64,000 nucleotides of DNA. It comes from Nitrosopumilus sp. Lineage in GTDB: Archaea; Thermoproteota; Nitrososphaeria; Nitrososphaerales; Nitrosopumilaceae. The stretch lies in the NCBI GenBank assembly GCA_965205215.1, contig OZ242041.1:1632001-1696000 (forward strand). The letters run 5' to 3'. Shown piece after piece: positions 23,727 through 61,604 of the stretch (position 1 is its first letter; each line of letters starts with the position of its first letter). The position numbers were made by a program, and so were the translations under genes. A model generated the notes under the pieces. The model worked only from the letters and a program-made list of their open reading frames with translations, was not told where the DNA came from and ran no database searches.

Positions 23727-25377
23727 GTATAGACTCAGGTCGCCACGTCTCATGATTCGAGCATATGTGAAGGACCGTCTCAGCATGTGGCGGCGACAGA
23801 GGGCACCGCCGTTGTAGCCTGTACCAGCCGTTCGACGCGCTCCGGGCAGTCGGGCGGTTTGAATATGCGCCAGTCAGGATCCTCGATCATGCGCTCCACC
23901 GCCATACGCGGGAACACACCCATCTTCTGGCACGTGCGCGCGACGGACACCAGCACGGAGAACACGTGGCGCCCGTCGGGTTCTGACAGCTGGTGGCGCA
24001 CGTTGCGGTGCAGCACGACGGTATCGCGTATTTCCAGCTCGGCGGCGTTGTTATGGGGCGGCATGCCCGGACATCTGAGGAACGTGAACAGGTGCGGGGC
24101 GGCGTTCTCCAGCGTCTCGCGGAACCCGTGACCCTTTTTGTAGCCCGACGCTATGCGCAGCACGGCCCTCTCCAGGTTTAGGCACTCGGCGCCGTCCGCC
24201 GACTCGCGGCTTTTGATCCTCCGGTACATGGAGAGCAGCCTGCGGTAGCACGACAGGTCGTCCCCGCCGTTTCTCACGGCGTATTTCTCGGCCTCGCGCA
24301 GTATGTGGGCCCAGCAGCGCTGCCTGACCGGGAGCATGCCGTACGCGACATATCCGTCCGTGACGGCCGGCATGCCCAGCAGGCCGCCAAAGTGCAGCTC
24401 CAGTACGGCCGCGGCCCTGCTCGGGGCCGCCACGATATACGTGGCGTCCCCTGTAGTCGCCAGCCATACGTACCCCCTCTTGCCGTTCATCCTGATAACC
24501 GACTCGTCGAACTGGACGAACGCGGCGCGCGAGATCCTCTCTAGGATGCCGTCGTACGCGGCCCCGAGCAGGTTCCTTATCGCCCTGCGCGCGTTCCAGA
24601 CCGCGTTTGCGGACACCGAAAAGCCGTAGAGCGCCCGGAAATAGTACGATATGGTCGAGTCAGTCGACCTCTTGGCGTAGTATTCGAGTATGAACCCTAG
24701 GGCCCTCGGGCCGAACGACGTGCCGGGCGGCAGGGGAGCCGGGGCGGTGCTGACCGCGCTGCACCTCCTGCAGAATCCGCGCTCGAGCACGTACGCGACC
24801 GTCTCGATGCACCTGCTGCTTTCATCCGGAAAGTCGTTTACGATTCTCGTGACGGGGGCCGCGTACGCGAGGTGGCCACGCCCACAGTTCCGGCACCGGT
24901 ACAGGCGCATGCGCTCCCTCCTCGAGGGCCTGTTACCGTGGGACGCGCCCTCGTGCCCCTCCGGAGGCCCGCTGCGCCTGCCCGCCGCGCTTTCTTTCGG
25001 TTCAGGTCCGCCCCCGTCCCCCTCCTCTTCTGCCAGCCTCTTCCGGAACGCGTCGCGCTCCGCGTTGTATATGGAACCCGTGGAGGACGGCGCGTTCGGG
25101 CTCTCGTATTTGGCCAGCCTCCTGTCCTGCTCTGCAATAGTCTCCATAAGCAGGTCTATCTGCTCCTCAAGGCCGGCCCTTATCCTGTCACGCTCGGCCT
25201 CCACCCGGGCGACTGCATCCTGCAGCCTCTTGATCTCCGCCATCATCTTGGCCATCTCCCGACGCAGCAGTGCCGTCTCGGAATCGCCCATGGACAATTT
25301 GCAGAATATATGATCTATAAGCTTGTCGGCCTGCCAGAGTTGCCAACAGGGTCACAGGCATGGACGTGAGTCCATAC
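23727..25377 (-). mobile_element. IS66-family insertion sequence, single-ORF (ISBst12-like), 1651 bp
   Basis: Imperfect TIRs GTATAGACTCAGGTC and GTATGGACTCACGTC; perfect 8-bp TSD ATGCACGA at 23719-23726 and 25378-25385. Confidence 0.93.
23780..25297 (-). CDS. IS66-family DDE transposase
   Basis: Coiled coil, CRNCG/CRRC zinc ribbon, FDES, TDGY..Y, QRCWAHILR, NNAAE..IR. Confidence 0.93.
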   Translation of the reverse strand: MSMGDSETALLRREMAKMMAEIKRLQDAVARVEAERDRIRAGLEEQIDLLMETIAEQDRRLAKYESPNAPSSTGSIYNAERDAFRKRLAEEEGDGGGPEPKESAAGRRSGPPEGHEGASHGNRPSRRERMRLYRCRNCGRGHLAYAAPVTRIVNDFPDESSRCIETVAYVLERGFCRRCSAVSTAPAPLPPGTSFGPRALGFILEYYAKRSTDSTISYYFRALYGFSVSANAVWNARRAIRNLLGAAYDGILERISRAAFVQFDESVIRMNGKRGYVWLATTGDATYIVAAPSRAAAVLELHFGGLLGMPAVTDGYVAYGMLPVRQRCWAHILREAEKYAVRNGGDDLSCYRRLLSMYRRIKSRESADGAECLNLERAVLRIASGYKKGHGFRETLENAAPHLFTFLRCPGMPPHNNAAELEIRDTVVLHRNVRHQLSEPDGRHVFSVLVSVARTCQKMGVFPRMAVERMIEDPDWRIFKPPDCPERVERLVQATTAVPSVAATC

Positions 25378-26951: not shown

Positions 26952-27213
26952 CCGCGGCGCGCTGCAGCAGCGCGCGTCGGCTCGCAGAAAGAGGCGGTGC
27001 CGGAGAACATCAAGCCGCTGCCGGACTTAAGATCGGCCAAGGCGCAGGGCAGGGCCGCGGGCACGACTCTGGGACGCGGCAGACCCGCCTGCCCTCTGAG
27101 GCGCCTGCCGCGCGCGGGTGCAGTCAGGGCGGCCTCCGGCCCACCATCCAGAAGGATGCATAAGATGATTTTGAACTATATATGGCATGCCGCAACGCGC
27201 CGGTGATCACAGC

Positions 27214-27855
27214 ATGCCTGACGCGACAGCGCAAAAGTTCGACTCGTGGGCCCTCAACGGCAAGGCCGAAGACATGCAGAGGGGCCACTACAAGAGCGTG
27301 TCTGCAATGCTAAGATCCGCAAAATTCGGAGGCGAGTTTACGTTTCTTGACATCGGGTGCGGAAACGGGTGGGTCGTCAGGTTGGTGACGTCCAGGCATC
27401 CCGGCTGCAGGCTCAGCGTGGGGATAGACAAGAGCGCCAACATGATCAGCCGCGCGGAATCAGATCCGGGCAACACGGGAAGGGAGAGGTACCTTTGCGC
27501 CGACATAGAGGAGTGGAAGTACAGGGGCCGGAAATTCGACTATGTGTTTGCAATGGAGTCGATATATTATGCGGATTCCGTTAGTGCCGCCCTTGCAAAG
27601 ATATACAAGCTCCTAAGGCCGGGGGGCGTCTTTTTGTGCGGGACGGACTTTTACGCGGAGAACACATCCACAAAGAGGTGGGCGGCGGCCATGGGGATTA
27701 CGATGCACCTGCACACCGAGGGCGAGTGGAAGGACATGCTGGCCAGGGCGGGGTTCGAGGTGAGGGCCAGGCGCCTCAAGGACCCGGCCGCCAAGGACGC
27801 ATGGAAGAGGAATACCGGAACGCTGTTTCTGAGGGGAAGAAAGCCCGCAGGGTGA
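27214..27855 (+). CDS. Class I SAM-dependent methyltransferase
   Basis: LDIGCGNG, LLRPGG. Confidence 0.9.
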   Translation: MPDATAQKFDSWALNGKAEDMQRGHYKSVSAMLRSAKFGGEFTFLDIGCGNGWVVRLVTSRHPGCRLSVGIDKSANMISRAESDPGNTGRERYLCADIEEWKYRGRKFDYVFAMESIYYADSVSAALAKIYKLLRPGGVFLCGTDFYAENTSTKRWAAAMGITMHLHTEGEWKDMLARAGFEVRARRLKDPAAKDAWKRNTGTLFLRGRKPAG

Positions 27856-28007: not shown

Positions 28008-28288
28008 GTGTGAGCTGAAGCGCGAACGCTGCCACGGCAGAGGAAACTCCTCCCTCCATACAGGGGTGCGATCCGGAGATGGATAGTCGGAGACGGCTGG
28101 CAACGGAGCAGAAAATGATCCAACATGGGGCACTGTGATGGCAGACCCTGAGGTTCCCATGAACGGAATGAAAGAAGCCGACCCGCACGGAGAAAGGCCA
28201 AACAGAGCTGCAGGACCTGTACCAGGCTCAGGTGGGCCGCAAAGCGAAATGTCGCGAGAACAGAAGGAGGGTTACTCTCAGCACACAC
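28008..28288 (+). ncRNA. rnpB: RNase P RNA (archaeal)
   Basis: Conserved P4 halves GAGGAAACTCCTCCC and AACAGAAGGAGGGTTAC; terminal P1 pairing GTGTGAGCTGA/TCAGCACACAC; TATA-like ATTATA at about 27981. Confidence 0.9.
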
Positions 28289-28394: not shown

Positions 28395-29771
28395 TCATCT
28401 CATGCTCTCGGACATCTCTTTGCAGAGAACGGCACCGCACGGGCACGTGTGGTCGCAGATGCACGAGTCCTGCATCTGGCAGTCGCACTCGGAGCTCATC
28501 TCGACTGACGCGGCGCATCCGCACGTGGCATCCTCCGCCGCTATCGCGGGGGGTGCCGAGCTGGGCTCACTCTGCTGCTGCTGCTGCGGCTGTTCCTGCT
28601 CGTAATGGCTGCGCGTCATTTGATAGTCCACGTCACCCTTTAGCTGGGCCTCGCCCCTGTTTGTCTGGTATCCCCCGGACGCCGAGCTGGTCTGGTATCC
28701 CACGAGATGGGTAGGGTCTATCCCCTGCTGGCCCTGCTTTTCGTTCTTTAGTGCGCGATTACTGACAAAAAAGAACGCAATGCCCGCGACGGCGGCCATT
28801 CCGGCCATGCCATATATGATCATTATTGGAAAGTCGCCCGTGGCCGTAGTGCTAGGTGCAGTAGACGTCACGCCTGCAATTTCAACTCCTTCAAGGATGT
28901 CAATGACACCGTACCCGATTATGTTCAGGTTGCCCTGGTCGGGGGACTGTATGCTCTTTACCACATATTCTTGATCAACCATTATGATCTCTTCCTCGAT
29001 TCGTTCGACCTGCCTTCCCTGCTGAAGGTTGCTCTCGCCCATGGTCCAGCTCGACTTTACAAAGCCCGATATCTCATCGCCTAGTCCGAAGGTTCCAGCG
29101 TCGACGTTGATTCCAGTCGGGTCGAACAGAAAGTGCCAGTTCTCAAGCGGCTGTTCCAAGACAAAGTCGGCATTAATCAGATACTCGTCGAATATGCGCT
29201 CGCCGGCGGTTCCGGATATCGTGTCCCGCGTCACTGGCAGGTTGTCCGCTACAAACGTAAACGGATCGTTGATCTCCTGGCCGTCAATCATGACGCTGCC
29301 GTCGACTGAGAGCCCCCTCCAGCCCAGATCAACGAGTGTCTTCTGGGAGTCCTGCGTAATTACATAGTTCACAAGCTCCCCAACCAGAATAATCTTGTAG
29401 TCTAACGACGCGCGCTCATCACCGCCGTAGAGTGCGAACGTATAGTCCACCTCCATGTCGGATATGCTGACCTGGCTGCCGCTCTGAAGTATGGCCGTGT
29501 TGAGCCTATCGATTAGAGACTGCACATCAGGATGGCTGGAATCATACTGGCCCGATATGGTAATGTCGTTTCCTCGCAGCTCGTCGACCAGCACTCCGCC
29601 ATCCTCGTACCATATGTGAATGGTTTTCAGATAGCTCATCTTAAAGGGCGAGGTATCTGCAGTCGGGATTATGGTAGCGTCAAGTTGGGCGGCCCACGAG
29701 TCGGAGGCGCCTCCTCCAAGAGCGAGCAGGCCGGCGGCGGCAAGACCCGCCACAAGAAATACTCTATTCAT
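28395..29771 (-). CDS. Single-pass cell-surface protein with acidic ectodomain and cytoplasmic metallothionein-like Cys-rich tail
   Basis: Signal peptide; TM IMIIYGMAGMAAVAGIAFFFV followed by basic residues; tail CGC-x9-CDC-x5-CIC-x3-CPC-x4-C. Confidence 0.85.
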   Translation of the reverse strand: MNRVFLVAGLAAAGLLALGGGASDSWAAQLDATIIPTADTSPFKMSYLKTIHIWYEDGGVLVDELRGNDITISGQYDSSHPDVQSLIDRLNTAILQSGSQVSISDMEVDYTFALYGGDERASLDYKIILVGELVNYVITQDSQKTLVDLGWRGLSVDGSVMIDGQEINDPFTFVADNLPVTRDTISGTAGERIFDEYLINADFVLEQPLENWHFLFDPTGINVDAGTFGLGDEISGFVKSSWTMGESNLQQGRQVERIEEEIIMVDQEYVVKSIQSPDQGNLNIIGYGVIDILEGVEIAGVTSTAPSTTATGDFPIMIIYGMAGMAAVAGIAFFFVSNRALKNEKQGQQGIDPTHLVGYQTSSASGGYQTNRGEAQLKGDVDYQMTRSHYEQEQPQQQQQSEPSSAPPAIAAEDATCGCAASVEMSSECDCQMQDSCICDHTCPCGAVLCKEMSESMR

Positions 29772-30778: not shown

Positions 30779-31708
30779 ATGGCTGACGTGATAACGGTAC
30801 TTGCGGGCGGTACGGGCTCTGTGAAGATGGTCAGGGGGCTGGCAGCTCAGGAATCCAAGGTCAACGTGATAAGTAACGTCGGCGACAACTACTGGTTGTA
30901 CGGGCTGTATGTCTGCCCCGACATTGACACCATAATGTACGGCCTGGCAGACCTGCTCGACCAAGAGAAGGGATGGGGGGTCAAAAAGGACACGTTTAAC
31001 TTTCTGCGACAGATGGAGGTGTTCGGCGAGGAGACGTGGTTTAGGATGGGCGACAGGGACGCGGCAACCCATCTGATCAGAACCAACATGCTCAAGAACG
31101 GAAAGAACCTAACGGACATTACAAAGTGGATGTGCGAAAGGTTTGCAGTGGGCGTCAACATAATTCCCGTCACGGACAACACCATAGAGACCAGGATAAG
31201 TACGAGCAAGGGCGAGATGCACCTCCAGGAATACTGGGTCAAGTACAGGGGGCGCGACGAGGTCGAGGGCATACAGTATATCGGCGCAGAAAAGGCGCGT
31301 CCAAACCCAGAGGCAGTCAACGCGATACAGAATTCAAAGCTCGTGATACTCGCCCCCGGAAACCCGCTCACGTCAATAGGCCCCATGTTGCAGATAAAGG
31401 GGATAAAAAAGGAGCTCGCAAGGGCAAAGAAAAAGGTGGTCGCCATAAGCCCGCTGATTGGCGACAGCTCCATAACCGGACCGGCCGCAAAGTACATGAA
31501 GGCGGCAGGAATCGAGTCCAACGCGTACGGGCTTGCAAAGATGTACTCGGACGTATGCTCCAACATTGTAATAGACACAAAGGACAGGGCGCTTGCAAAA
31601 AAGATACGCAGCCTGGACATGAGCGTATACGAGACGAAGATCACCATGAAGAACAAGGCCGCAGAGGAGGCGCTAGCCAGCTTTGTCACAAAGCAGGTAC
31701 ACGCGTGA
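30779..31708 (+). CDS. cofD: 2-phospho-L-lactate transferase
   Basis: LAGGTGSVK, NVGDN, CPDIDT, WFRMGDRD, HLQEYWV. Confidence 0.95.
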   Translation: MADVITVLAGGTGSVKMVRGLAAQESKVNVISNVGDNYWLYGLYVCPDIDTIMYGLADLLDQEKGWGVKKDTFNFLRQMEVFGEETWFRMGDRDAATHLIRTNMLKNGKNLTDITKWMCERFAVGVNIIPVTDNTIETRISTSKGEMHLQEYWVKYRGRDEVEGIQYIGAEKARPNPEAVNAIQNSKLVILAPGNPLTSIGPMLQIKGIKKELARAKKKVVAISPLIGDSSITGPAAKYMKAAGIESNAYGLAKMYSDVCSNIVIDTKDRALAKKIRSLDMSVYETKITMKNKAAEEALASFVTKQVHA

Positions 31709-31772
31709 CGTCTTGTCGCGGCAAGGCGCGTACGACCCAAGTATAATTACACCAATGCAGTGGTGACCTCAG

Positions 31773-32444
31773 TTGAGGACAGCGGCAATAATACCAGTCA
31801 AGAGATTCGAGGGGGCAAAGACGCGCCTCGGGCTTGGCGCTTCAGAGGTGGCAGAACTGTGCGGGGTGATGCTAAGGGAGATCATAGGCGTTGTATCCAC
31901 ATCCAGCCACATAGACCACACGTTTGTAGTGACCAGGGATCCAGAGGCCGAGAGGATGGTCGCAGAGTTCGGGAGCAGGTCAGGGAAAGGAGGCGGCCCA
32001 GTCATAACGGCCATACGCGACGAGCACGAGAGGGGCGTCAACGAGGCAGTAGCACTGGCAGACAGGCGCATCATGCAAGACGGATACGACGCGTCCATAG
32101 TCATGCCGCAGGACATACCATACATCAAGGCGCAGGACATTGACTTTATGATGAGGTTTGCAGCGCCGCCCAACTTTGCAGTCGTCGTACCGTCGAGGAA
32201 GTTTGACGGCACCAACGCCCTCGTAAGGATGCCAGCCGATCTGATGGGAACGCACTACGACAACAACAGCTACAGGGAGCACGTCAGGATGGCAGGCGAG
32301 TGCACGAGAAATGTGGCCCCTGTGTTCGTGAGGAGGATAATGATGGACATAGATACAATGGACGACCTGAGGTTCCTGCTTGCAAACAGCGGCGAAAAAC
32401 CGCACGTCGCAGTCCAGATAGAGCGCATAGCAGGCAGGGGATAG
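31773..32444 (+). CDS. cofC: 2-phospho-L-lactate guanylyltransferase
   Basis: IIPVK...AKTRL, DIP, GTNAL, DIDT.DDL. Confidence 0.92.
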   Translation: MRTAAIIPVKRFEGAKTRLGLGASEVAELCGVMLREIIGVVSTSSHIDHTFVVTRDPEAERMVAEFGSRSGKGGGPVITAIRDEHERGVNEAVALADRRIMQDGYDASIVMPQDIPYIKAQDIDFMMRFAAPPNFAVVVPSRKFDGTNALVRMPADLMGTHYDNNSYREHVRMAGECTRNVAPVFVRRIMMDIDTMDDLRFLLANSGEKPHVAVQIERIAGRG

Positions 32445-41995: not shown

Positions 41996-42022
41996 TTTTC
42001 TTCGACCTTTCTTTTTTTTATT
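41996..42022 (+). terminator. Oligo-T archaeal terminator
   Basis: TTTTC..TTTCTTTTTTT immediately after the stop codon. Confidence 0.6.
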
Positions 42023-42188
42023 AGGCTGCGGAATACCTGGGGCTCATAGCTAAGGTCAAAGGCTCTCGAATATTGGCACGGCCCATGTCATGGTACACGC
42101 ACATGTCAAGATCGAGCTTCGATGTATGAAAGTATGCGGACACAATCCTTCTCATATCGGTAAACGCGGGACAGTATTCTGACACCAA

Positions 42189-42401
42189 CAGGAGGTGCGC
42201 AATACGTTTGCAAGATTCGAAGAGCTCCCTGGCCTTGAGAGCATGGCGGCAGACAAAGATTACGTACCGGAGCAGAAACAAGATATGAGCCACATGACAC
42301 ACAGGGCGGCGCCAAAGCAAACGGGCCCAGTGCTAGGGGTGCTACGCACCATACAGAGCGCCGGCAATATGACAGGCCTGATGTACGCACTCAGCAGCTA
42401 G
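42189..42401 (+). pseudogene. Degraded second copy of the integrase C-terminal end
   Basis: Co-linear with 44531-44752 (FARFEELPGLE...QSAGNMTGL versus FARSEEFLGLE...QGAGNMTGL). Confidence 0.7.
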
Positions 42402-42933
42402 TCACATCCGGCGGTGAGAACGAGGAGATGCGCGCAGTTGCAGACTCGTAGATGCGCTGACGGATAGGCGCATCATCAGAGGACGTCACGCAGGGCCCGA
42501 GCCCAGGATGGAGGCGAACACGAACGGCTCCACCGCACGCTTGAAGATAAACTGCACCGCTTTGGTGGCCTGTCGGAGTTTGTCGCATACTATAACGAGA
42601 AGTGGTTGCACTGGTTCCTTGACATAGACAGAGGCGAGGTCCCGCTGCAGGCGTTTGACAACAAAAAGGCATCGAATACGATCAGGGATAGCAATACGAA
42701 ATGGGTTGAAGAGGACGCCAACGACTAGACAAAATCATTTTAATACAATACACTTTAGAAACCCGGTCAAATGTTTTTATATATGCAGATACTTGGGCTC
42801 CACAACGGCGCACGCCGCATGTACGGCCAGTCCATTCGTACGCGTGTAGCAAGCAAGGCAGACCGCCGATATGCTCATTTCGCGCTCAGGATCACTTCAG
42901 AAAGTCGGCATGTTGCCATTTTTGCTATTTTGA

Positions 42934-43404
42934 TCAAGAAGAGGCGGCGCCGTCAAAGTCGTCTAGGATCTGGCTTGCATGTCCCGTCGGCTTTACCTTT
43001 GTATATGCTTTGAATATGATCCCGTCCTCTCCTACGAGAAACGAGCTCCTTATCACCCCTTCGCGCTCTTTGTCCCCGACCTTTTTCATGCCCCACACCC
43101 CGAACATTTTGGCCACCGCATGCTGCGTATCTGCCATCAGAACGTATTGGATTTTCTTCCTTTCACGGAAATTTTCATGCGACTCGACGCTGTCTGGACT
43201 GATCCCGATAACCTCTATGTCGCGGCGCCGGTATTCATCATATAGATTTCCAAACTCGTCGGCCTGGATGGTGCAACCCGGCGTAAAGTCCTTTGGGTAA
43301 AAATAGATCACATGCTTCTTGCCTGCAAAATCCTTGGAGCTTTTGAGCGTCCCCGGAGAATCCGGGAGTTCAAAGGACGGTACCGCGTCCCCTTCACTTA
43401 TCAT
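42934..43404 (-). CDS. bcp: Peroxiredoxin, BCP/PrxQ family (island copy)
   Basis: YFYPKDFTPGCT, GISPDS, RSSFLV. Confidence 0.92.
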   Translation of the reverse strand: MISEGDAVPSFELPDSPGTLKSSKDFAGKKHVIYFYPKDFTPGCTIQADEFGNLYDEYRRRDIEVIGISPDSVESHENFRERKKIQYVLMADTQHAVAKMFGVWGMKKVGDKEREGVIRSSFLVGEDGIIFKAYTKVKPTGHASQILDDFDGAASS

Positions 43405-43525
43405 GTTGGCGCATACTTCCGCTTCACATTTTATACCTTTGCATCAGATGTTATGTTACAAATTCTGGAACTGATATAGATAATCTAATAAATACCATTA
43501 AGATTGGTACCTAAATAAACCCAAG

Positions 43526-43648
43526 TATTATTAATATTGACCCTATGATAGACTTTTATTATCAATATTGGCTCCCATGATAAATTCTATTACTAATATT
43601 GGTTTCTATGATAAATCCTATTATTAATATTGGTACATATAACAAATG
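43526..43648. repeat. Four imperfect 31-bp AT-rich tandem repeats, plus a degenerate fifth at about 43493
   Basis: Units at 43526, 43557, 43588 and 43619 with consensus TATTAYYAATATTGGNNCYATGATAAATNC. Confidence 0.85.
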
Positions 43649-43744
43649 TACAATAATATGCCAAGACATATTATCATAATATATGTGCGATAATACAGTT
43701 CCGTCGTTTTTGACAGATCCCGAATTCGCAAGAGCCAGCGTCCA

Positions 43745-43756
43745 AAACTTTTAAAA
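43745..43756 (+). promoter_or_regulatory. BRE/TATA core AAACTTTTAAAA
   Basis: 22 nt upstream of ATG 43779; same motif and spacing as at 57990-58001. Confidence 0.7.
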
Positions 43757-43778
43757 CATGCCAAATGCAAACACATGC

Positions 43779-43907
43779 ATGGCAGACTCATGTGCCGAAC
43801 AAATCGCGGCTAACAGCGAATGTAACTGCGCACCAAAGACCGAATGCGGTTGTGACTCGACAGCGTGTGAATGCGCTACAGAAATCTGCGTGACTGCAAG
43901 AGGATAG
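43779..43907 (+). CDS. Metallothionein-like protein, 42 aa (MADSCAEQIAANSECNCAPKTECGCDSTACECATEICVTARG)
   Basis: Manual translation; 8 Cys including three CxC pairs; promoter and poly-T terminator; two homologs in the window. Confidence 0.8.
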   Translation: MADSCAEQIAANSECNCAPKTECGCDSTACECATEICVTARG

Positions 43908-43920
43908 AAAGTCCAACCAC

Positions 43921-43935
43921 TTTTTTTTATTTTAA
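43921..43935 (+). terminator. Oligo-T terminator
   Basis: T8-A-T4 located 13 nt after the stop codon. Confidence 0.65.
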
Positions 43936-44199
43936 TTCTGTCATACTAGGCCTTGCGCGCCGCCGCTTATCTGCATGAGTCGCCATTCCGGATCACGCTT
44001 GCGGGCCTAGCAGTGTACCCGCGGCGCAACCGCAGTGTGGAGATGCGGGAACAGGAAGCCGCACGATCCGGGTTGGTCCGCGGCGCCGCGGCCGCGTTGC
44101 AATCCGGCGCCCGTGTAACACATGCCCGCCACACTGCAACCGCGCGCCTCGTCGTCGCTGGCGCCGTCCTGATCGGGCTCCTCTTGCCGCACGCGACAC

Positions 44200-53084: not shown

Positions 53085-54212
53085 TCACACTGTCCTGTAA
53101 AAGTTGTCGCGCTCTGACGCCTCGTACCCCATCTGGGATATCGCGTTCCGGATTATGTCGCCGGTCAGCTCCGTCGACCGGGCGCCCGTGCAGGACACCA
53201 CCTCCTCGCCTATCAGCGTGCCGCCAAAGTCGTCGGCCCCGTACTGCAGCGCAAGCTGCGCCATGCCGACCCCGTTTGTAAGCCAGGACGACTGTATGTG
53301 GGGTATGGACGCGTCGTATACGAGCCTGGATATCGCAATCATCTTGAGCAGCTGGATGCCGCCTGAGCCGAACTCGGACGTCACAATCTTGTCGACCAGC
53401 CCGTCCCTCTGCATCGGGGTGTTGCCGGGCTCAAAGTTCCACGGTATGAACGCCATAAACCCGCCCGTCTCCTCCTGCAGCTTGGCAATCTCGAAGAAGT
53501 GGTCCGCGATGTCAGACGTGGTCTCCGCATGCCCGTACATCATAGTGGCCGACGACGGCAGTCCAAGCGAGTGCGCCTCCCTCATTATGCGCAGCCAGTC
53601 GGAGCTTGAGATCTTTTTGGGGCTTATGGCGTCCTTGACGTCGTCACTCAGTATCTCGGCGCCGGCCCCTGGCACGGACTGCAGTCCGGCCTCCTTGAGG
53701 CGCGAGAGCACCTCCGCGGTAGACGACCGCTCCACCCGGGCAACCATGTCTATCTCCGACGGGGAGAGCGCGTGCACGCCCACGCCCGGGTAACTGTCGC
53801 GAATCATGCGGAACGCCTCCTCAAAGTACTCGATGCCCAGCTTGGGGTTGTGCCCTCCTTGGAAGAGGACCTGGCGTATGCCGAACATCTCGTGCGCGGT
53901 CTTCACCCTGGCCCTGATCTGCGAGATGTCAAGTGTATAGGACTCGTCGTGCCCGGGCGGCCTGTAAAAGGCGCAAAACGTGCAGTCCGTTATACAGACG
54001 TTGGTGTAATTGAGTATGATGTTGTTCACGTACGTGGCCCTGCGCCCAAAGCGCCTCTGCACGAGGTGCCGGGCCGCCATTCCCATCAGGTGGACGTCGT
54101 CGGACTTCAAGAGCCGCATGCAGTCATGCCTGTCAGGGGCGTGCCCCGCAACTACCCTCTCAAGTATGTCCCCAATCTCGCTCTGGTGCAGCTGCGCAGT
54201 GACCAATCCCAT
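53085..54212 (-). CDS. mqnC: Radical SAM dehypoxanthine futalosine cyclase (CofH/MqnC family)
   Basis: NYTNVCITDCTFCAF, QGGHNP, PGAGAEIL, ATMMYGH, QSSW. Confidence 0.82.
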   Translation of the reverse strand: MGLVTAQLHQSEIGDILERVVAGHAPDRHDCMRLLKSDDVHLMGMAARHLVQRRFGRRATYVNNIILNYTNVCITDCTFCAFYRPPGHDESYTLDISQIRARVKTAHEMFGIRQVLFQGGHNPKLGIEYFEEAFRMIRDSYPGVGVHALSPSEIDMVARVERSSTAEVLSRLKEAGLQSVPGAGAEILSDDVKDAISPKKISSSDWLRIMREAHSLGLPSSATMMYGHAETTSDIADHFFEIAKLQEETGGFMAFIPWNFEPGNTPMQRDGLVDKIVTSEFGSGGIQLLKMIAISRLVYDASIPHIQSSWLTNGVGMAQLALQYGADDFGGTLIGEEVVSCTGARSTELTGDIIRNAISQMGYEASERDNFYRTV

Positions 54213-54532
54213 GCACCGGATGTACGGAATTTTCTATTTAATTCTTGACGATGGCGCGCTCCAGCATACCAAGTGGCCACGTGCGCGGCAAGCCGCGAGA
54301 GACGCCCCTTGTCCCCTCTCGTACCGCCGGCTTTGATGCGGGCAGATCCGAGGACTTGCGTCTCGGGGGATTCCCCGAGATGCCTGCCGCATGCGGCGCA
54401 TACGTTACGCGATGCCAAGAACAGAAGGCGCCTGGTCGTAAAGTGGGATCTGGAGGGAGGAGGGCGGGGGCGGAAGGGGGAGGGCGGGGGGAACCTATAT
54501 TGTTTTTAAGTGGGAAGCCCGGAGCCGGTGTG

Positions 54533-55321
54533 ATGGTGACAGGCGTCCAGCTCCGAATGGCCAGGATAATGCGCCGCGGCCGCATGCTCTGCATACCCAT
54601 GGATCATGGGATATCAAACGGGCCGATAGAGGGGCTTGAGGATCCCGCCTCAGTCATATACAGGTGCCAGAACAGGGGTATAACCAGCGTCATAGTCAAC
54701 AAGGGAGTCATAAAGGCGCTTCCAGAGCCCGTGCCACGCATAGGGGTGCTGGTGCACTTTTCAAGCAGCACGTCGCTCTCCACGTCCCCGAATCGCAAGA
54801 TGCTGACTGGGACGGTCAAGGAGGCAGTCGCGCTGGGCGCAGACGGCGTGTCGCTGCACATCAACGTGGGCGGCAAGGAGGAGCCGGAGATGCTAGAGCA
54901 GCTCGGGATGACTGCGGCCGCATGCCACAGGTGGAACATGCCGCTGCTTGCAATGATGTATCCGAGGGGCGAGAACATCAGCGATCCGCACGACCCGGCC
55001 GTGGTGGCCCACGCGGCCCGCATCGGGGCCGAGTGCGGGGCGGACATCGTAAAGACCGTATACACGGGGGATGCCGCGTCCTTTGCAAAGATAGTAAAGA
55101 GCACGCCGGTGCCCATAGTGATAGCCGGAGGTCCAAAGGCGGAGACGGACATGGATCTGCTCCAGATGACGGAGGATGCCATGAGGGCGGGCGCCGCCGG
55201 GGTCACGTACGGCAGGAACATATTTGCGCACGGCGCGCCCGAGAGAATGGTCGACGCGCTTGCCGCGGTCATATTCAAGGGGGCAAAGGCGACGGAGGCG
55301 GCAAAAAAGCTTGGCCAGTGA
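54533..55321 (+). CDS. aroA': 2-amino-3,7-dideoxy-D-threo-hept-6-ulosonate synthase
   Basis: PMDHG, PLLAMMYPRG, GADIVKT, AGGPK, GRNIF; upstream of DHQ synthase II. Confidence 0.9.
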   Translation: MVTGVQLRMARIMRRGRMLCIPMDHGISNGPIEGLEDPASVIYRCQNRGITSVIVNKGVIKALPEPVPRIGVLVHFSSSTSLSTSPNRKMLTGTVKEAVALGADGVSLHINVGGKEEPEMLEQLGMTAAACHRWNMPLLAMMYPRGENISDPHDPAVVAHAARIGAECGADIVKTVYTGDAASFAKIVKSTPVPIVIAGGPKAETDMDLLQMTEDAMRAGAAGVTYGRNIFAHGAPERMVDALAAVIFKGAKATEAAKKLGQ

Positions 55322-56435
55322 CGGTTCGGCGACGGCGTCCGGAAAGGAGCTGATAGTACAGCCCAAGCAGAAGAGCAGAAAACAGCGGGGGGAGTTCCTA
55401 GCACAGCTGCAGGCAGAGGGCCTGCAGACGGCATATGCCGACCCGAGCATTGCCGCAGGCGGGGGAGGAAAAAAGAAGAGCGGCCTCAAGACGATGTTTG
55501 CGGACGCGGGCGCCGACTACGTGGTGCTTGCCGGAGGCCGCGGCCCGAAAAGGCCGGCCTCGCCGCCAAGGAGAAGGGGCGGCAAGAGGTACGGCATGCG
55601 CTTTAAGATTACGTCGAACGCGGACATCGAGGACGTGCTGAGTGTCGCGGCAAGCAAGAGGCTCGACTTTGTCATAGTGGACGTAAAGGACTGGAAGATC
55701 ATACCGCTTGAGAACATCATAGCAAAGCTGCACAAGATGAGCACGAGGATAATCGCGCTTGCCCGCACGCCGGCCGAGGTTCGCAAGATGTTCTCCATAC
55801 TTGACGTAGGGGTGGACGGAGTGATATTCGCCGCGTCGTCCATATCCCAGGTGCGGGAGGTCATGCTTTACATGGGCGGCAGAAGCTTCGGGATGGAGGC
55901 GGCCGCCATAACCGAGATAAAGGAGGTGGGCGACGGCGAGCGCGTCTGCGTGGATACGGCCTCGATGCTCAAGAAGGGCGAGGGCATGCTTATCGGGAGC
56001 CGGTCAAACTTTATGTTCCTAGTCCACAACGAGTCGGTCGGCTCGTCGTTTACGTCGCCGAGGCCGTTCCGCGTGAACGCCGGGGCGGTCCACTGCTATA
56101 CCCCGTCGCCGGACGGCACCACAAAGTACCTCTCGGAGATAGAGACGGGTTCAGAGGTGCTCATACTCACGCCGGAGGGCCACGCGAGGAGGGCAGCGGT
56201 GGGAAGGTCAAAGATAGAGCGCAGGCCCATGCTCATGATAAAGGCCGAGGCGGCCGGCGAGATCGGCGGCATCATAGCGCAGGACGCGGAGACGATCAGG
56301 TTTGTAAAGCCGGGCGGGAGGCTGGTCTCCGTCACGCACCTCAAGGTGGGCGACAAGGTGATGGTGCACGCCCGCAGGGCTGCGGGCAGGCACTTTGGCA
56401 TGGAGGTCGCCGACGAGTACATTTTAGAAAAGTGA
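55311..56435 (+). CDS. aroB': 3-dehydroquinate synthase II
   Basis: WKIIPLEN, GERVCVDT, RPFRVNAGAVH, GRHFGM...ILEK. Confidence 0.93.
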   Translation: MASDGSATASGKELIVQPKQKSRKQRGEFLAQLQAEGLQTAYADPSIAAGGGGKKKSGLKTMFADAGADYVVLAGGRGPKRPASPPRRRGGKRYGMRFKITSNADIEDVLSVAASKRLDFVIVDVKDWKIIPLENIIAKLHKMSTRIIALARTPAEVRKMFSILDVGVDGVIFAASSISQVREVMLYMGGRSFGMEAAAITEIKEVGDGERVCVDTASMLKKGEGMLIGSRSNFMFLVHNESVGSSFTSPRPFRVNAGAVHCYTPSPDGTTKYLSEIETGSEVLILTPEGHARRAAVGRSKIERRPMLMIKAEAAGEIGGIIAQDAETIRFVKPGGRLVSVTHLKVGDKVMVHARRAAGRHFGMEVADEYILEK

Positions 56436-57148
56436 TGGCTTCAAAAAAGAACAGGTACAGCACGTGCGTCTCAGTGGCAAAGGGCGGCCCCGCGGCGATG
56501 CGCAGGGCGCTCTTGGAGGCGCTCAGGAGATCAGAGTACGCGGAGGCGCGGCTCGACTATATGAGGCCCGACGACATGCAGGGACTGCTCGACTCGCTGC
56601 CGCCGGACCTTTTGAGGAGGCGCATAGTCTGCACCATACGAAACAGGCGGGACGGCGGCAGGTACGAGGGGCGAGAGGGGGCCAGGTACGACATGCTCGG
56701 CAGGGTAGCCGCGTACAGGCCGTTTATGCTAGACGTCGAGTACGACGCGCTCAAGAGGAGCAGGAGGCTGGCAGGCGCGCTGCATGCGAGCGGCGCCCGC
56801 CTGTTGGTCTCGTGGCACAGCTTTGCGCGCACCCCGTCGCCTGACGCGCTGCACAGAAGAATGCAGGGGATGTTTAGATACTCGGACCACGTCAAACTCG
56901 CATGCATGGCAAGGAATGCAGATGAGTCAATACGCATGCTCGAGCTGTACAGGCAGATTGGCAGCGGTGGCTCGGGCGGAGGCAGTAGAACCCTCATATC
57001 GTTTGCAATGGGCGACGCGGGCAGGCTGACACGCGTGCTCTGCATGCAGCTGGGAAGCCCTTACGCGTACGTGTCGCTCGGCAGGGCCGTGGCCCCGGGG
57101 CAGCTCTCGCTTGAGGAGTTCAGGCGGCTGGGCAGCATGCTCAAGTGA
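56432..57148 (+). CDS. aroD: Type I 3-dehydroquinate dehydratase
   Basis: E.RLD, TIR..DGG, SWH.F..TP, KLA, AMG..G, APGQ. Confidence 0.9.
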   Translation: MMASKKNRYSTCVSVAKGGPAAMRRALLEALRRSEYAEARLDYMRPDDMQGLLDSLPPDLLRRRIVCTIRNRRDGGRYEGREGARYDMLGRVAAYRPFMLDVEYDALKRSRRLAGALHASGARLLVSWHSFARTPSPDALHRRMQGMFRYSDHVKLACMARNADESIRMLELYRQIGSGGSGGGSRTLISFAMGDAGRLTRVLCMQLGSPYAYVSLGRAVAPGQLSLEEFRRLGSMLK

Positions 57149-57811: not shown

Positions 57812-57827
57812 GAAAAAATAAAAAAAT
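57812..57827 (-). terminator. Oligo-T terminator of the metallothionein-like gene
   Basis: A-tracts on the plus strand just beyond the stop codon. Confidence 0.65.
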
Positions 57828-57832
57828 CAGTT

Positions 57833-57967
57833 CTAGTGCTCTGTGCTCTTGCAGGGATCACCACTGCAATCACATGTTGAATCACAGTAGCATTCGCTCT
57901 GCATCGAGCAGTCACATTCTGTGTTGTTTTCCGCTTGCGCGGCACAACCGCATGCTGCATCCGACAT
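57833..57967 (-). CDS. Metallothionein-like protein, 44 aa (MSDAACGCAAQAENNTECDCSMQSECYCDSTCDCSGDPCKSTEH)
   Basis: Manual translation; 9 Cys with four CxC pairs; TATA and terminator; Cys spacing identical to the tail of 28395-29771. Confidence 0.85.
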   Translation of the reverse strand: MSDAACGCAAQAENNTECDCSMQSECYCDSTCDCSGDPCKSTEH

Positions 57968-57989: not shown

Positions 57990-58001
57990 TTTTAAAAGTT
58001 T
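57990..58001 (-). promoter_or_regulatory. BRE/TATA core AAACTTTTAAAA
   Basis: 22 nt upstream of ATG 57967, as for the gene at 43779. Confidence 0.7.
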
Positions 58002-58111: not shown

Positions 58112-59302
<1,191 letters not shown>

Positions 59303-59417
59303 ATGCATCACATGCCCCCATGCGTGTATAAAGAGATCAGCAGATACGCATCCACATCCGTGCGCGTCGCAACCGAAAGCATTTCCTTTAAATTGAGACA
59401 TTCCAGTTTTCAATCTA

Positions 59418-59495
59418 GCTCCCATAGTGTAGTCCGGTTAAGCATACTGCCCTCTCAAGGCAGTGACTCGGGTTCAAATCCCGATGGGAGCACCA
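59418..59495 (+). tRNA. tRNA-Glu(CTC) with encoded CCA
   Basis: GCTCCCA/TGGGAGC acceptor, CTGCC-CTCTCAA-GGCAG, GGTTCAAATCC. Confidence 0.95.
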
Positions 59496-60313: not shown

Positions 60314-60961
60314 TCAGCGCAGCAAGTCTTGTAAAACGCGGCCTTTGTTCTCCCTAAACTCGACTGTGCCGATGCGATAATATATGATCTCGCCGTGCCT
60401 GTCCACGACTGCCATTATGGGCTCCTTTCCCATCTGGGTTATCTCGCGTATCTTTTTTTGCAAATGCACCATCTTTTCCGGCCTGCCCTCGACAAGTCCG
60501 AAAATGAGAATCTTGGAGCCCTTTTGTCCGAAATGCCCCCGCTCATACACGCGAAAATCTGCGCCGAATCCGAACCCGTCCTTTGCCACGTAGCCGCGGG
60601 AGCGCAGATCCCGGTATATGAGAAAGCGCGTCAGTATGTCCGGGTCATGCCTGCGGCACATGCTCAGAAACGCCTCGAATGTCAGGAGCCTCTTTGAGCG
60701 GAAGAGCGTCAGCCGGCCCGTGTGCATCAGATACAGGGCCTCAAAGGATTCGAGAAACAGTCGGGCGTCCACGTCGTCGCCACCGCCATCATCATCATCA
60801 CCGTCCTGCCCGTCAGTCCAGCCGAACCCCTTCTCAACCAGCTCGCGCGCTGCCTGCGCATCCGTAATGCACGGGCGCGGCATCGGCGACGCGGAGGACG
60901 GGGTTGGCGACATCACAACCGTTCCCCGAATATTTCCCCCCACATCGATCTCGTCGTTCAC
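60314..60961 (-). CDS. endA: tRNA-intron endonuclease
   Basis: EALYL, YRDLRSRGY, G.GFGADFRVY, AVVD..GEI.YY. Confidence 0.88.
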   Translation of the reverse strand: MNDEIDVGGNIRGTVVMSPTPSSASPMPRPCITDAQAARELVEKGFGWTDGQDGDDDDGGGDDVDARLFLESFEALYLMHTGRLTLFRSKRLLTFEAFLSMCRRHDPDILTRFLIYRDLRSRGYVAKDGFGFGADFRVYERGHFGQKGSKILIFGLVEGRPEKMVHLQKKIREITQMGKEPIMAVVDRHGEIIYYRIGTVEFRENKGRVLQDLLR

Positions 60962-61133
60962 TAGGACAGCATTTGAGCAGATTCCATATTAAGTGTGGCA
61001 GCACGTGCGGGTTTGCAGGGCCGTGCCGCGGGCGCGGACGGACCAATGCGGCAGGAAAGGACCGGCCGCAAGCGTCCGCACGCACGCAGCAAACAAGCTT
61101 AAAATATCTCGCGGGATGCCTCGGACACATAGC

Positions 61134-61604
61134 ATGAGCGCAGAGGCAACCCCGACATCAAGCCACGCGTACGGAGTGGGAGTGATTGCGTTGATAATCG
61201 CGCTGTCGGCCACCACGGTCTTTTACACCTCGTACTACCTGCCCGAATCGCTTGCAAAACCGTCCGTATCAGAACATATACTCCATCCCGAGGAGACTCT
61301 TGTAATCGACATTGTAGAGGGCGCCCTTATAGAAGGCAACGACAACTACATACCAAACAGCCCCACCGCGTACCTGACCATCAACAACCTGGTCAAGTGG
61401 ACAAACAGCGACGGGACGGCGCACACGGTCACGCCGGACCACAGGCACGCGGACTCCTACAGCGGCGACTTTGGCTCAGACGGCGTGATGATGCCGGGCG
61501 ACGAGTACGAGTTCCTGTTCACCGAGCCGCAGGTGGTGACCTACCACTGCACCCCCCACCCGTGGATGAAGGGCACCATAACCGTGGAGAAGAGCAGGTT
61601 CTAG
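61134..61604 (+). CDS. Membrane-anchored cupredoxin (plastocyanin/azurin family)
   Basis: W.N.D..AHTVT, YHCTPHPWMKG. Confidence 0.92.
   Translation: MSAEATPTSSHAYGVGVIALIIALSATTVFYTSYYLPESLAKPSVSEHILHPEETLVIDIVEGALIEGNDNYIPNSPTAYLTINNLVKWTNSDGTAHTVTPDHRHADSYSGDFGSDGVMMPGDEYEFLFTEPQVVTYHCTPHPWMKGTITVEKSRF

Follow-up and report, generated by a model that had tools for sequence, protein, structure and literature searches.

In the beta-domains of animal metallothioneins, an M3Cys9 or Cu(I) cluster is bound by nine thiolates, which four CxC pairs and one further cysteine supply. In passages of two published accounts (PMC7558416, PMC11755726), metallothioneins are mentioned for eukaryotes and some bacteria only; the first describes MymT as a formerly non-annotated small open reading frame (ORF), with a predicted capacity of up to six Cu(I) (PMC7558416). 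Here we describe a small cysteine-rich protein from an archaeon, Nitrosopumilus sp. (family Nitrosopumilaceae), the gene of which lies at 57833–57967 of a 64,000-nucleotide stretch of contig OZ242041.1 (hereafter, the window), together with a homologous domain at the end of a membrane protein encoded in the same window. The genome is one contig of 2,098,239 bases, of which the window comprises bases 1,632,001–1,696,000. We find the nine-cysteine gene to be genuine, under selection, modular and specific to the family, and we weigh the possibility that its product is a metallothionein-like metal-binding domain.

A small gene for a nine-cysteine protein

The gene and its flanking signals occupy the following positions.

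57833–57967, minus strand: gene for the free 44-amino-acid nine-cysteine protein, stop codon included (ORF list)
57990–57998, minus strand: TATA-like box CTTTTAAAA, 22 nucleotides 5′ of the ATG at 57967 (sequence reading)
57813–57827, minus strand: oligo-T run T7-A-T6 just past the stop codon, an archaeal-type terminator (sequence reading)

The cysteines of the protein are spaced as CxC-x9-CxC-x5-CxC-x3-CxC-x4-C, that is, as four CxC pairs plus one, and begin at residue 6 of a sequence that has no signal peptide. Cysteine makes up 9 of the 44 residues (20.5%), the sole aromatic residue is one Tyr, and the protein has nine Asp or Glu residues versus one Lys. Metallothioneins are recognized by their size (less than about 10 kDa) and by their composition (about 15–35% Cys in CxC, CxxC or CC motifs, with few or no aromatic residues); the 44-amino-acid protein falls within both descriptions, and its orthologues are 44–49 amino acids in length. 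The first-pass annotation, which was made from the window alone, had reported the frame, its cysteine spacing and its metallothionein-like make-up, as well as a TATA box and an oligo-T terminator belonging to the gene, and all of these are borne out here.

The signals recur in relatives. Of the 34 loci compared, orthologous or paralogous, 33 have a TATA-like hexamer that ends 18–28 nucleotides 5′ of the ATG, and all 34 have at least five consecutive T within 60 nucleotides past the stop codon. A scan for bacterial-type terminators at the gene found none, as expected for an archaeon. Judged by what is generally known of archaeal promoters, a TATA-like box about 22 nucleotides before the ATG would make the transcripts of the nine-cysteine genes leaderless or nearly so. 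A search of sequencing runs returned none of RNA that contains the locus.

Distribution and selection

A profile built from four copies of the domain matched 148 of the 151 genomes of the family (145 of 148 without three unpublished genomes), including members of all 27 genera and 114 of the 115 high-quality genomes; the completeness of the three genomes that did not match is 71, 86 and 91%. The conservation in relatives that the first-pass annotation had proposed as a check is present across the family. Outside the family, the picture is different. In a sample of the phylum searched at E ≤ 0.01, all 43 family genomes matched, versus none of the 257 genomes from 47 other families. At the permissive threshold of E ≤ 1, a sample of the order gave matches in all 40 family genomes and, among 160 genomes of other families, in 12, these being short partial matches only (the best, with E = 0.0026, spans 15 residues, and a weak one, with E = 0.24, was in an unpublished genome). 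A profile search of 1.84 billion representative proteins returned 25 matches at E ≤ 0.001, each of which is either a small free protein or a C-terminal tail like those described here, and the titles of records for related loci name Nitrosopumilus, Cenarchaeum, Nitrosarchaeum, Nitrosopelagicus, Nitrosotalea and Nitrosomaritimum. On the basis of the phylum, order and protein searches and these record titles, the nine-cysteine family is confined to Nitrosopumilaceae, rather than extending to ammonia-oxidizing archaea at large, and the ‘thaumarchaeal’ range that had been suggested for it is too wide.

The domain occurs in two forms, free and membrane-tethered, as had also been suggested. By hand count of the family genomes in the phylum sample, the free form (a match in a short frame of 45–79 amino acids) is found in 44 of 44 and the fused form (a match that ends a frame of 376–527 amino acids) in 31 of 44. 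The nine-cysteine gene is universal in the sampled family, small-genome members included.

Pairwise comparison of 17 orthologous 44-codon genes, the loci of which range in G+C from 0.34 to 0.74, gave 718, 554 and 2,869 differences at codon positions 1, 2 and 3, respectively, and this third-position excess points to purifying selection on the protein. Eight of the cysteines are invariant and the ninth is kept in at least 90% of 35 aligned sequences. Conservation of other residues is also strong, including the G of CGC, the D of CDC and an MQ pair (in alignments of 26–35 members), and the length is fixed.

Further copies of the domain in the genome

The identical nine-cysteine spacing occurs in the last 46 residues of a 458-amino-acid ORF at 28395–29771 (minus strand), and a near-identical spacing, with eight cysteines, in a 42-amino-acid product encoded at 43779–43907; both had been noted at first pass. 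An alignment of the 44-amino-acid protein, the 458-amino-acid tail and the 43779 copy has 13 invariant columns. The initial count of three domains within 30 kb thus stands, and a search of the same genome adds a fourth copy outside the window, at the N terminus of a 236-amino-acid ORF at approximately base 664,184. In that ORF, the nine-cysteine domain is followed by a partial second cysteine motif and a repeated, charged, coiled-coil-like segment, a fusion that has so far been seen in this genome alone.

A six-frame scan of the whole 2.1-Mb genome with the nine-cysteine pattern returned three homologous places and one TGC-repeat artefact, and the same pattern had no matches in five shuffled genomes; a relaxed eight-cysteine pattern gained the 43779 copy, plus more repeat artefacts. 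Because the genome scan gave only homologous copies and a repeat artefact, and the shuffled genomes gave nothing, the recurrence of the pattern is not due to chance.

The eight-cysteine copy has signals much like those of the 44-amino-acid gene.

43779–43907, plus strand: divergent 42-amino-acid paralogue with eight cysteines and its own box and terminator (ORF list, sequence reading)
43748–43756, plus strand: TATA-like box CTTTTAAAA, 22 nucleotides 5′ of the ATG at 43779 (sequence reading)
43921–43933, plus strand: oligo-T run T8-A-T4 after the stop codon of the 43779 gene, with T8 at 43921–43928 (sequence reading)

Its spacing, C-x9-CxC-x5-CxC-x4-CxC-x4-C, lacks the first cysteine of the first pair and has one spacer longer by one residue. 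The 42-amino-acid product results from an in-frame ATG at 43779 within ORF 43758–43907 (plus strand); the ATG at 43758 is unlikely to be the start because it is only 2 nucleotides past the box. The first-pass annotation counted this copy, which matches the domain profile with E = 1.9e-15, as a third occurrence of the domain. None of the 60 other genomes of the genus matched it at E ≤ 1e-6, and the copy is species-specific among the genomes searched, rather than a third conserved member. The G+C content of 42001–44000, around the copy, is 0.474, compared with about 0.6 in the surroundings. A gene for an AhpC/TSA peroxiredoxin (42934–43404, minus strand) is divergently adjacent to it. Both the 43779 copy and the 236-amino-acid fusion look like local duplications.

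A membrane protein carries the fused form

The 458-amino-acid ORF encodes a single-pass membrane protein (the carrier), for which we mapped the following features.

28395–29771, minus strand: gene for the 458-amino-acid carrier (ORF list, hydropathy, regional conservation)
28764–28835, minus strand: its transmembrane helix, residues 313–336, in which small-xxx-small motifs are abundant (hydrophobic windows at 314–337)
28416–28535, minus strand: its nine-cysteine domain, residues 413–452 (alignments)

The protein starts with a signal peptide and an ectodomain of about 285 amino acids, followed by one transmembrane helix and a conserved juxtamembrane segment; a Q/P-rich spacer connects this segment to the C-terminal nine-cysteine domain. 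Its regions differ in conservation, given here as mean identity to the window’s protein over 38 sequences.

Residues 28–312, ectodomain: 0.62
Residues 313–336, transmembrane helix: 0.85, the highest of the carrier’s regions
Residues 337–390, juxtamembrane segment: 0.80
Residues 391–412, Q/P-rich spacer: 0.25
Residues 413–452, cysteine domain: 0.71

Because the basic residues R/K/K follow the transmembrane helix, the nine-cysteine domain should be cytoplasmic according to the positive-inside rule.

Homologues of the carrier are numerous (2,456 at E ≤ 1e-5 among 8,000 scored candidates), and the 120 that were listed are all unnamed or ‘hypothetical’ and have no Pfam domain. Carrier orthologues are present in all five of the tail-less genomes examined, which represent five genera, and end without the cysteine domain. 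Four of these five end in a short conserved motif, G/R-S-M-P-K-G/D-W, and the cysteine-bearing carriers end in S-M-R/S, so the domain looks to have been gained by insertion, or lost, immediately ahead of a C-terminal end that both forms share. Given that tail-less carriers end without it, the cysteine domain is a swappable module on the carrier.

The ectodomain does not clearly resemble any solved fold. In the structural model of the carrier, residues ~30–210 have a predicted local distance difference test (pLDDT) score near 90. Fold comparison with this model, in which residues ~21–301 were effectively covered, gave a best VIA-align Z of 4.7, and Foldseek found no match among solved chains at E ≤ 0.001. 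A scan of the carrier against Pfam and NCBIfam returned solely a sub-threshold match to DUF7412 (E = 0.17).

An archaeal RNase P RNA gene (RF00373, 173 bits) lies at 28010–28286 (plus strand), between the carrier gene and a convergent methyltransferase gene at 27187–27855. A conserved ‘100-amino-acid ORF’ (100–170 amino acids) beside the carrier gene was rejected as an opposite-strand translation of this RNA gene. A 505-amino-acid transposase ORF of the IS66 family (23780–25297, minus strand) is 3 kb from the carrier gene.

A possible metal–thiolate cluster domain

We tentatively propose, at somewhat below an even chance, that the nine-cysteine domain is a metallothionein-like metal–thiolate cluster domain for the cytosolic handling of Cu(I) or Zn(II). 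In such a cytoplasmic, acidic protein of about 40 residues, the nine cysteines would wrap a small metal–thiolate cluster in the manner of a single metallothionein domain, the cluster most likely consisting of three divalent ions (Zn/Cd type, M3Cys9) or of four to six Cu(I). The free form might then act as a cytosolic buffer or hand-over protein for soft metals (Cu(I)/Zn(II)) in Nitrosopumilaceae, and in the fused form such a cluster would sit at the cytoplasmic side of a conserved single-pass membrane protein. By the logic of gene fusion, the free protein and the carrier would be linked and would act jointly. In making this proposal, we infer metal binding, the identity of the metal, the stoichiometry and the buffering or hand-over role.

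Some comparisons with known families point in the direction of metallothioneins. With a full-length carrier profile, HMMER matched the tail to the human metallothionein-1A beta-domain (9q7p_A) in the common register CxC-x5-CxC-x3-CxC, with a non-significant E = 0.12, and we read this likeness as convergence of pattern, not homology. In a language-model search, the nearest named clusters after the family’s own were PF02067 (0.87), PF02068 (0.80) and PF00131 (0.78), which are leads only. AlphaFold2 modelling of the 44-amino-acid protein without metal, using 35 aligned sequences, produced no confident fold (mean pLDDT, 56.8), a result that is compatible with metal-dependent folding yet is not evidence for it. 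The family had been called unannotated: this holds in so far as it has no Pfam or NCBIfam model (both small proteins were without a match in NCBIfam), but its homologues are already on deposit as ‘hypothetical protein’, except for one that has the automatic JGI label ‘metallothionein 4’. We found no description of the nine-cysteine family or of an archaeal metallothionein in a literature search that covered few subscription journals.

The complement of other metal-binding proteins was also considered. In the window’s genome, no SmtA/BmtA-type protein (PF02069) scores over the cut-off (the best match has 17.5 bits versus a cut-off of 33, and is at another locus), and there is no match to HMA (PF00403) and none to DUF326/Csp3 (PF03860) at E ≤ 0.01. 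Csp3 identity was rejected for the 44-amino-acid protein itself, as Csp3 has a repeated Cys motif in a bundle of four helices and more than 100 amino acids, and as PF03860 is not matched anywhere in the genome. In the sample of the order, HMA was found in 9 of the 40 family genomes, compared with 88 of the 160 from other families; among the matches listed, the family frames are all 808–829 amino acids (ATPase-sized), and other families also have frames of 70–100 amino acids (chaperone-sized). Within the family, HMA was counted by hand in 6 of the 13 genomes without the fused tail versus 3 of the 27 with it, a lead only, as five of the six tail-less, HMA-bearing genomes belong to one genus. CopA1/A2, CopZ and a Csp are reported for Nitrososphaera viennensis, a species of a different family (PMC7785015).

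Several points count against a metallothionein. The contrasts in HMA and copper proteins amount to roughly one evolutionary event and are weak, rather than independent, support. No Pfam family matched either small protein at E ≤ 10, and this comparison, which had been suggested at first pass, included the metallothionein families (PF00131, PF01439, PF02067, PF02068, PF02069 and others). The domain profile had no matches among PDB sequences at E ≤ 10, and there is no metal transporter or metal regulator among the conserved neighbours of the free gene. Conserved non-cysteine residues and a fixed length fit a module with a specific structural or interaction role better than a protein that chelates metal in bulk, the strong acidity (nine Asp/Glu versus one Lys) is unlike many metallothioneins, and universality even in small genomes suggests a housekeeping rather than a detoxifying role. 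For a detoxifying metallothionein, the combination of conserved non-cysteine residues, fixed single-domain size, membrane fusion and no adjacent metal genes would be unusual.

A broader proposal is that this is the first archaeal metallothionein family and that, with the carrier, it constitutes a lineage-specific system for handling Cu (or Zn) in marine ammonia oxidizers, which would replace the CopZ/CopA and Csp proteins of other ammonia-oxidizing archaea and in which the tethered cluster would serve as a relay for Cu(I), or for a metal signal, between cytosol and membrane protein. Judged from sequence, we consider this broader proposal unlikely.

Alternative explanations

Several of the features that sit awkwardly with a detoxifying metallothionein would be at least as much at home in a structural zinc-cluster module, such as a small Zn ribbon or a Zn3Cys9-type knot, that binds a specific protein or nucleic-acid partner and in which the metal is structural only. 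The free form would then be a regulator or adaptor, and the fused form would hold that partner at a membrane protein, for signalling or assembly. The strong conservation of non-cysteine positions, the fixed domain size and the strongly acidic charge are consistent with such a module, as are its fusion behind a highly conserved transmembrane helix (0.85) and juxtamembrane segment (0.80), its swappable nature (tail-less carriers in five of the five genomes examined), a universal gene with a constitutive-looking promoter and a synteny that contains no metal-homeostasis gene. However, the domain has none of the CxxC knuckles that are the usual mark of structural zinc sites, is not similar to zinc-finger or other Pfam families, finds no PDB match with its profile and acquires no confident AlphaFold2 fold despite 35 aligned sequences, and we regard a zinc module, the leading alternative, as possible, if fairly unlikely. 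A protein with redox-active or NO-reactive thiols that senses or scavenges peroxide or nitric oxide (NO), or that holds an iron–sulphur cluster, appears distinctly improbable. The host organism produces NO and is sensitive to peroxide, and the small acidic character of the protein is like that of ferredoxins; the main support is the peroxiredoxin gene divergently adjacent to the 43779 paralogue. That adjacency, however, is limited to a copy that has no orthologue in 60 congeners, whereas the conserved nine-cysteine gene has different neighbours. In addition, CxC pairs are not a usual iron–sulphur motif, and Pfam contains no ferredoxin or other iron–sulphur family that matches.

Size and cysteine content are also shared with some precursors of ribosomally synthesized and post-translationally modified peptides, and a radical S-adenosylmethionine (SAM) gene is present in the window at 53085–54212 (minus strand). 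Nevertheless, it is very improbable that the gene encodes a cysteine-rich precursor of this kind, with a ranthipeptide/SCIFF-like or chalkophore-like product: the radical-SAM protein is CofH/MqnC-like, its gene is at a distance of 3.6 kb and does not belong to the conserved setting, the small protein has no leader peptide (its cysteines start at residue 6), the same domain forms the predicted cytoplasmic end of a 458-amino-acid membrane protein, and no maturase or exporter is found in synteny. Finally, given that the ORF is short and that the high G+C of the window yields many spurious ORFs, the frame could have been a chance ORF or the translation of something else. This is refuted by conservation (the domain is in 148 of the 151 family genomes), by the third-codon-position excess of differences, by the conserved box and terminator and by the scan of five shuffled genomes, which had no pattern matches. 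The metallothionein-like reading is therefore the one that we carry forward, with the reservations given above.

Gene neighbourhood

The free gene has a conserved setting in relatives, in which a gene of approximately 294 amino acids is followed by the small gene and then by a gene for a secreted protein of approximately 480 amino acids. The upstream neighbour is common to 16 of 20 and 13 of 14 relatives’ loci, and the downstream neighbour to 15 of 20 and 13 of 14. On account of the same genomic place, the 47-amino-acid variant of Nitrosopumilus-like genera is the orthologue of the 44-amino-acid gene.

58112–59425, minus strand: conserved upstream neighbour, nucleotidyltransferase-like (synteny in relatives)

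In the window, this neighbour encodes 437 amino acids compared with approximately 294 in relatives, owing to a long, Asp/Gly-rich, low-complexity insertion. It has no match in Pfam or NCBIfam, and its profile gave only chance-level matches in the PDB; as a lead, a language-model search with a homologue placed it near nucleotidyltransferase clusters of PF01909 (0.92–0.93) and a ‘DUF4037’ label. The downstream gene has been relocated elsewhere in the window’s genome, and the secreted protein that it encodes is unrelated to the carrier ectodomain.

A gene for a plastocyanin/azurin-type blue copper protein (PF00127, E = 2e-7; 60993–61604, plus strand) is 3 kb from the small gene, and a tRNA-intron endonuclease gene is at 60314–60961 (minus strand). 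The regions 53085–57148 and 30779–32444 contain a consecutive set of archaeal shikimate-pathway genes, for a DeoC-type aldolase, 3-dehydroquinate synthase II and type I dehydroquinase, as well as F420 biosynthesis genes (CofH/MqnC-like radical SAM, CofD and CofC).

Significance and comparison with known systems

The energy metabolism of Nitrosopumilaceae relies on copper enzymes (PMC7785015). The family is among the most abundant archaea of the ocean, and its intracellular handling of copper is poorly known. The nine-cysteine protein is a candidate for the missing cytosolic metal carrier, because it is universal, family-specific and strongly selected, and because most family genomes lack HMA and the window’s genome lacks Csp3. 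If the protein binds metal clusters, an archaeal family would be added to the metallothioneins, along with a rare membrane-tethered case; if it does not, it would still be an undescribed conserved module that is tied to an equally undescribed, abundant membrane protein.

The archaeal domain and the beta-domain of vertebrate metallothioneins (PF00131; human MT-1A, PDB 9q7p) both have nine cysteines as four CxC pairs plus one, with three central pairs in the arrangement CxC-x5-CxC-x3-CxC, and both are cytosolic, nearly aromatic-free and approximately 30–40 residues in length. The beta-domain holds M(II)3Cys9 or Cu(I)6 clusters. The two differ in that there is no significant sequence similarity between them (E = 0.12; no PF00131 match) and in that the extra pair of the archaeal domain precedes the shared triplet, at a distance of nine residues, instead of following it. 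The archaeal domain is also acidic rather than Lys-rich, single and, in some proteins, fused to a membrane protein.

SmtA/BmtA (PF02069) and MymT are, like the archaeal protein, small, cysteine-rich, cytosolic proteins of prokaryotes. SmtA has His ligands and a zinc-finger-like fold, whereas the archaeal protein has no PF02069 match; the likeness to MymT is by description only.

Csp proteins fold as bundles of four helices and exceed 100 amino acids, and HMA domains have a ferredoxin-like fold with one CxxC site. In terms of function, Csp1/Csp3 and CopZ-type HMA chaperones may be analogues, with cytosolic Cu(I) thiolate binding in organisms that have a high demand for copper (PMC7558416, PMC11755726, PMC7785015). 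Neither the Csp3 nor the HMA family was found in the window’s genome.

For the fused form, the systems that come to mind are the cytoplasmic cysteine-rich tail of the yeast copper importer Ctr1 and the Cu-cluster domains of Ace1/Mac1, which take up several Cu(I) and pass on the metal or a signal. Unlike Ctr1, the archaeal carrier has a single transmembrane helix and a large ectodomain without a clear fold match, but by description it would share with these proteins a cysteine-rich segment that forms clusters and is placed at the cytosolic end of a regulator or of a membrane protein.

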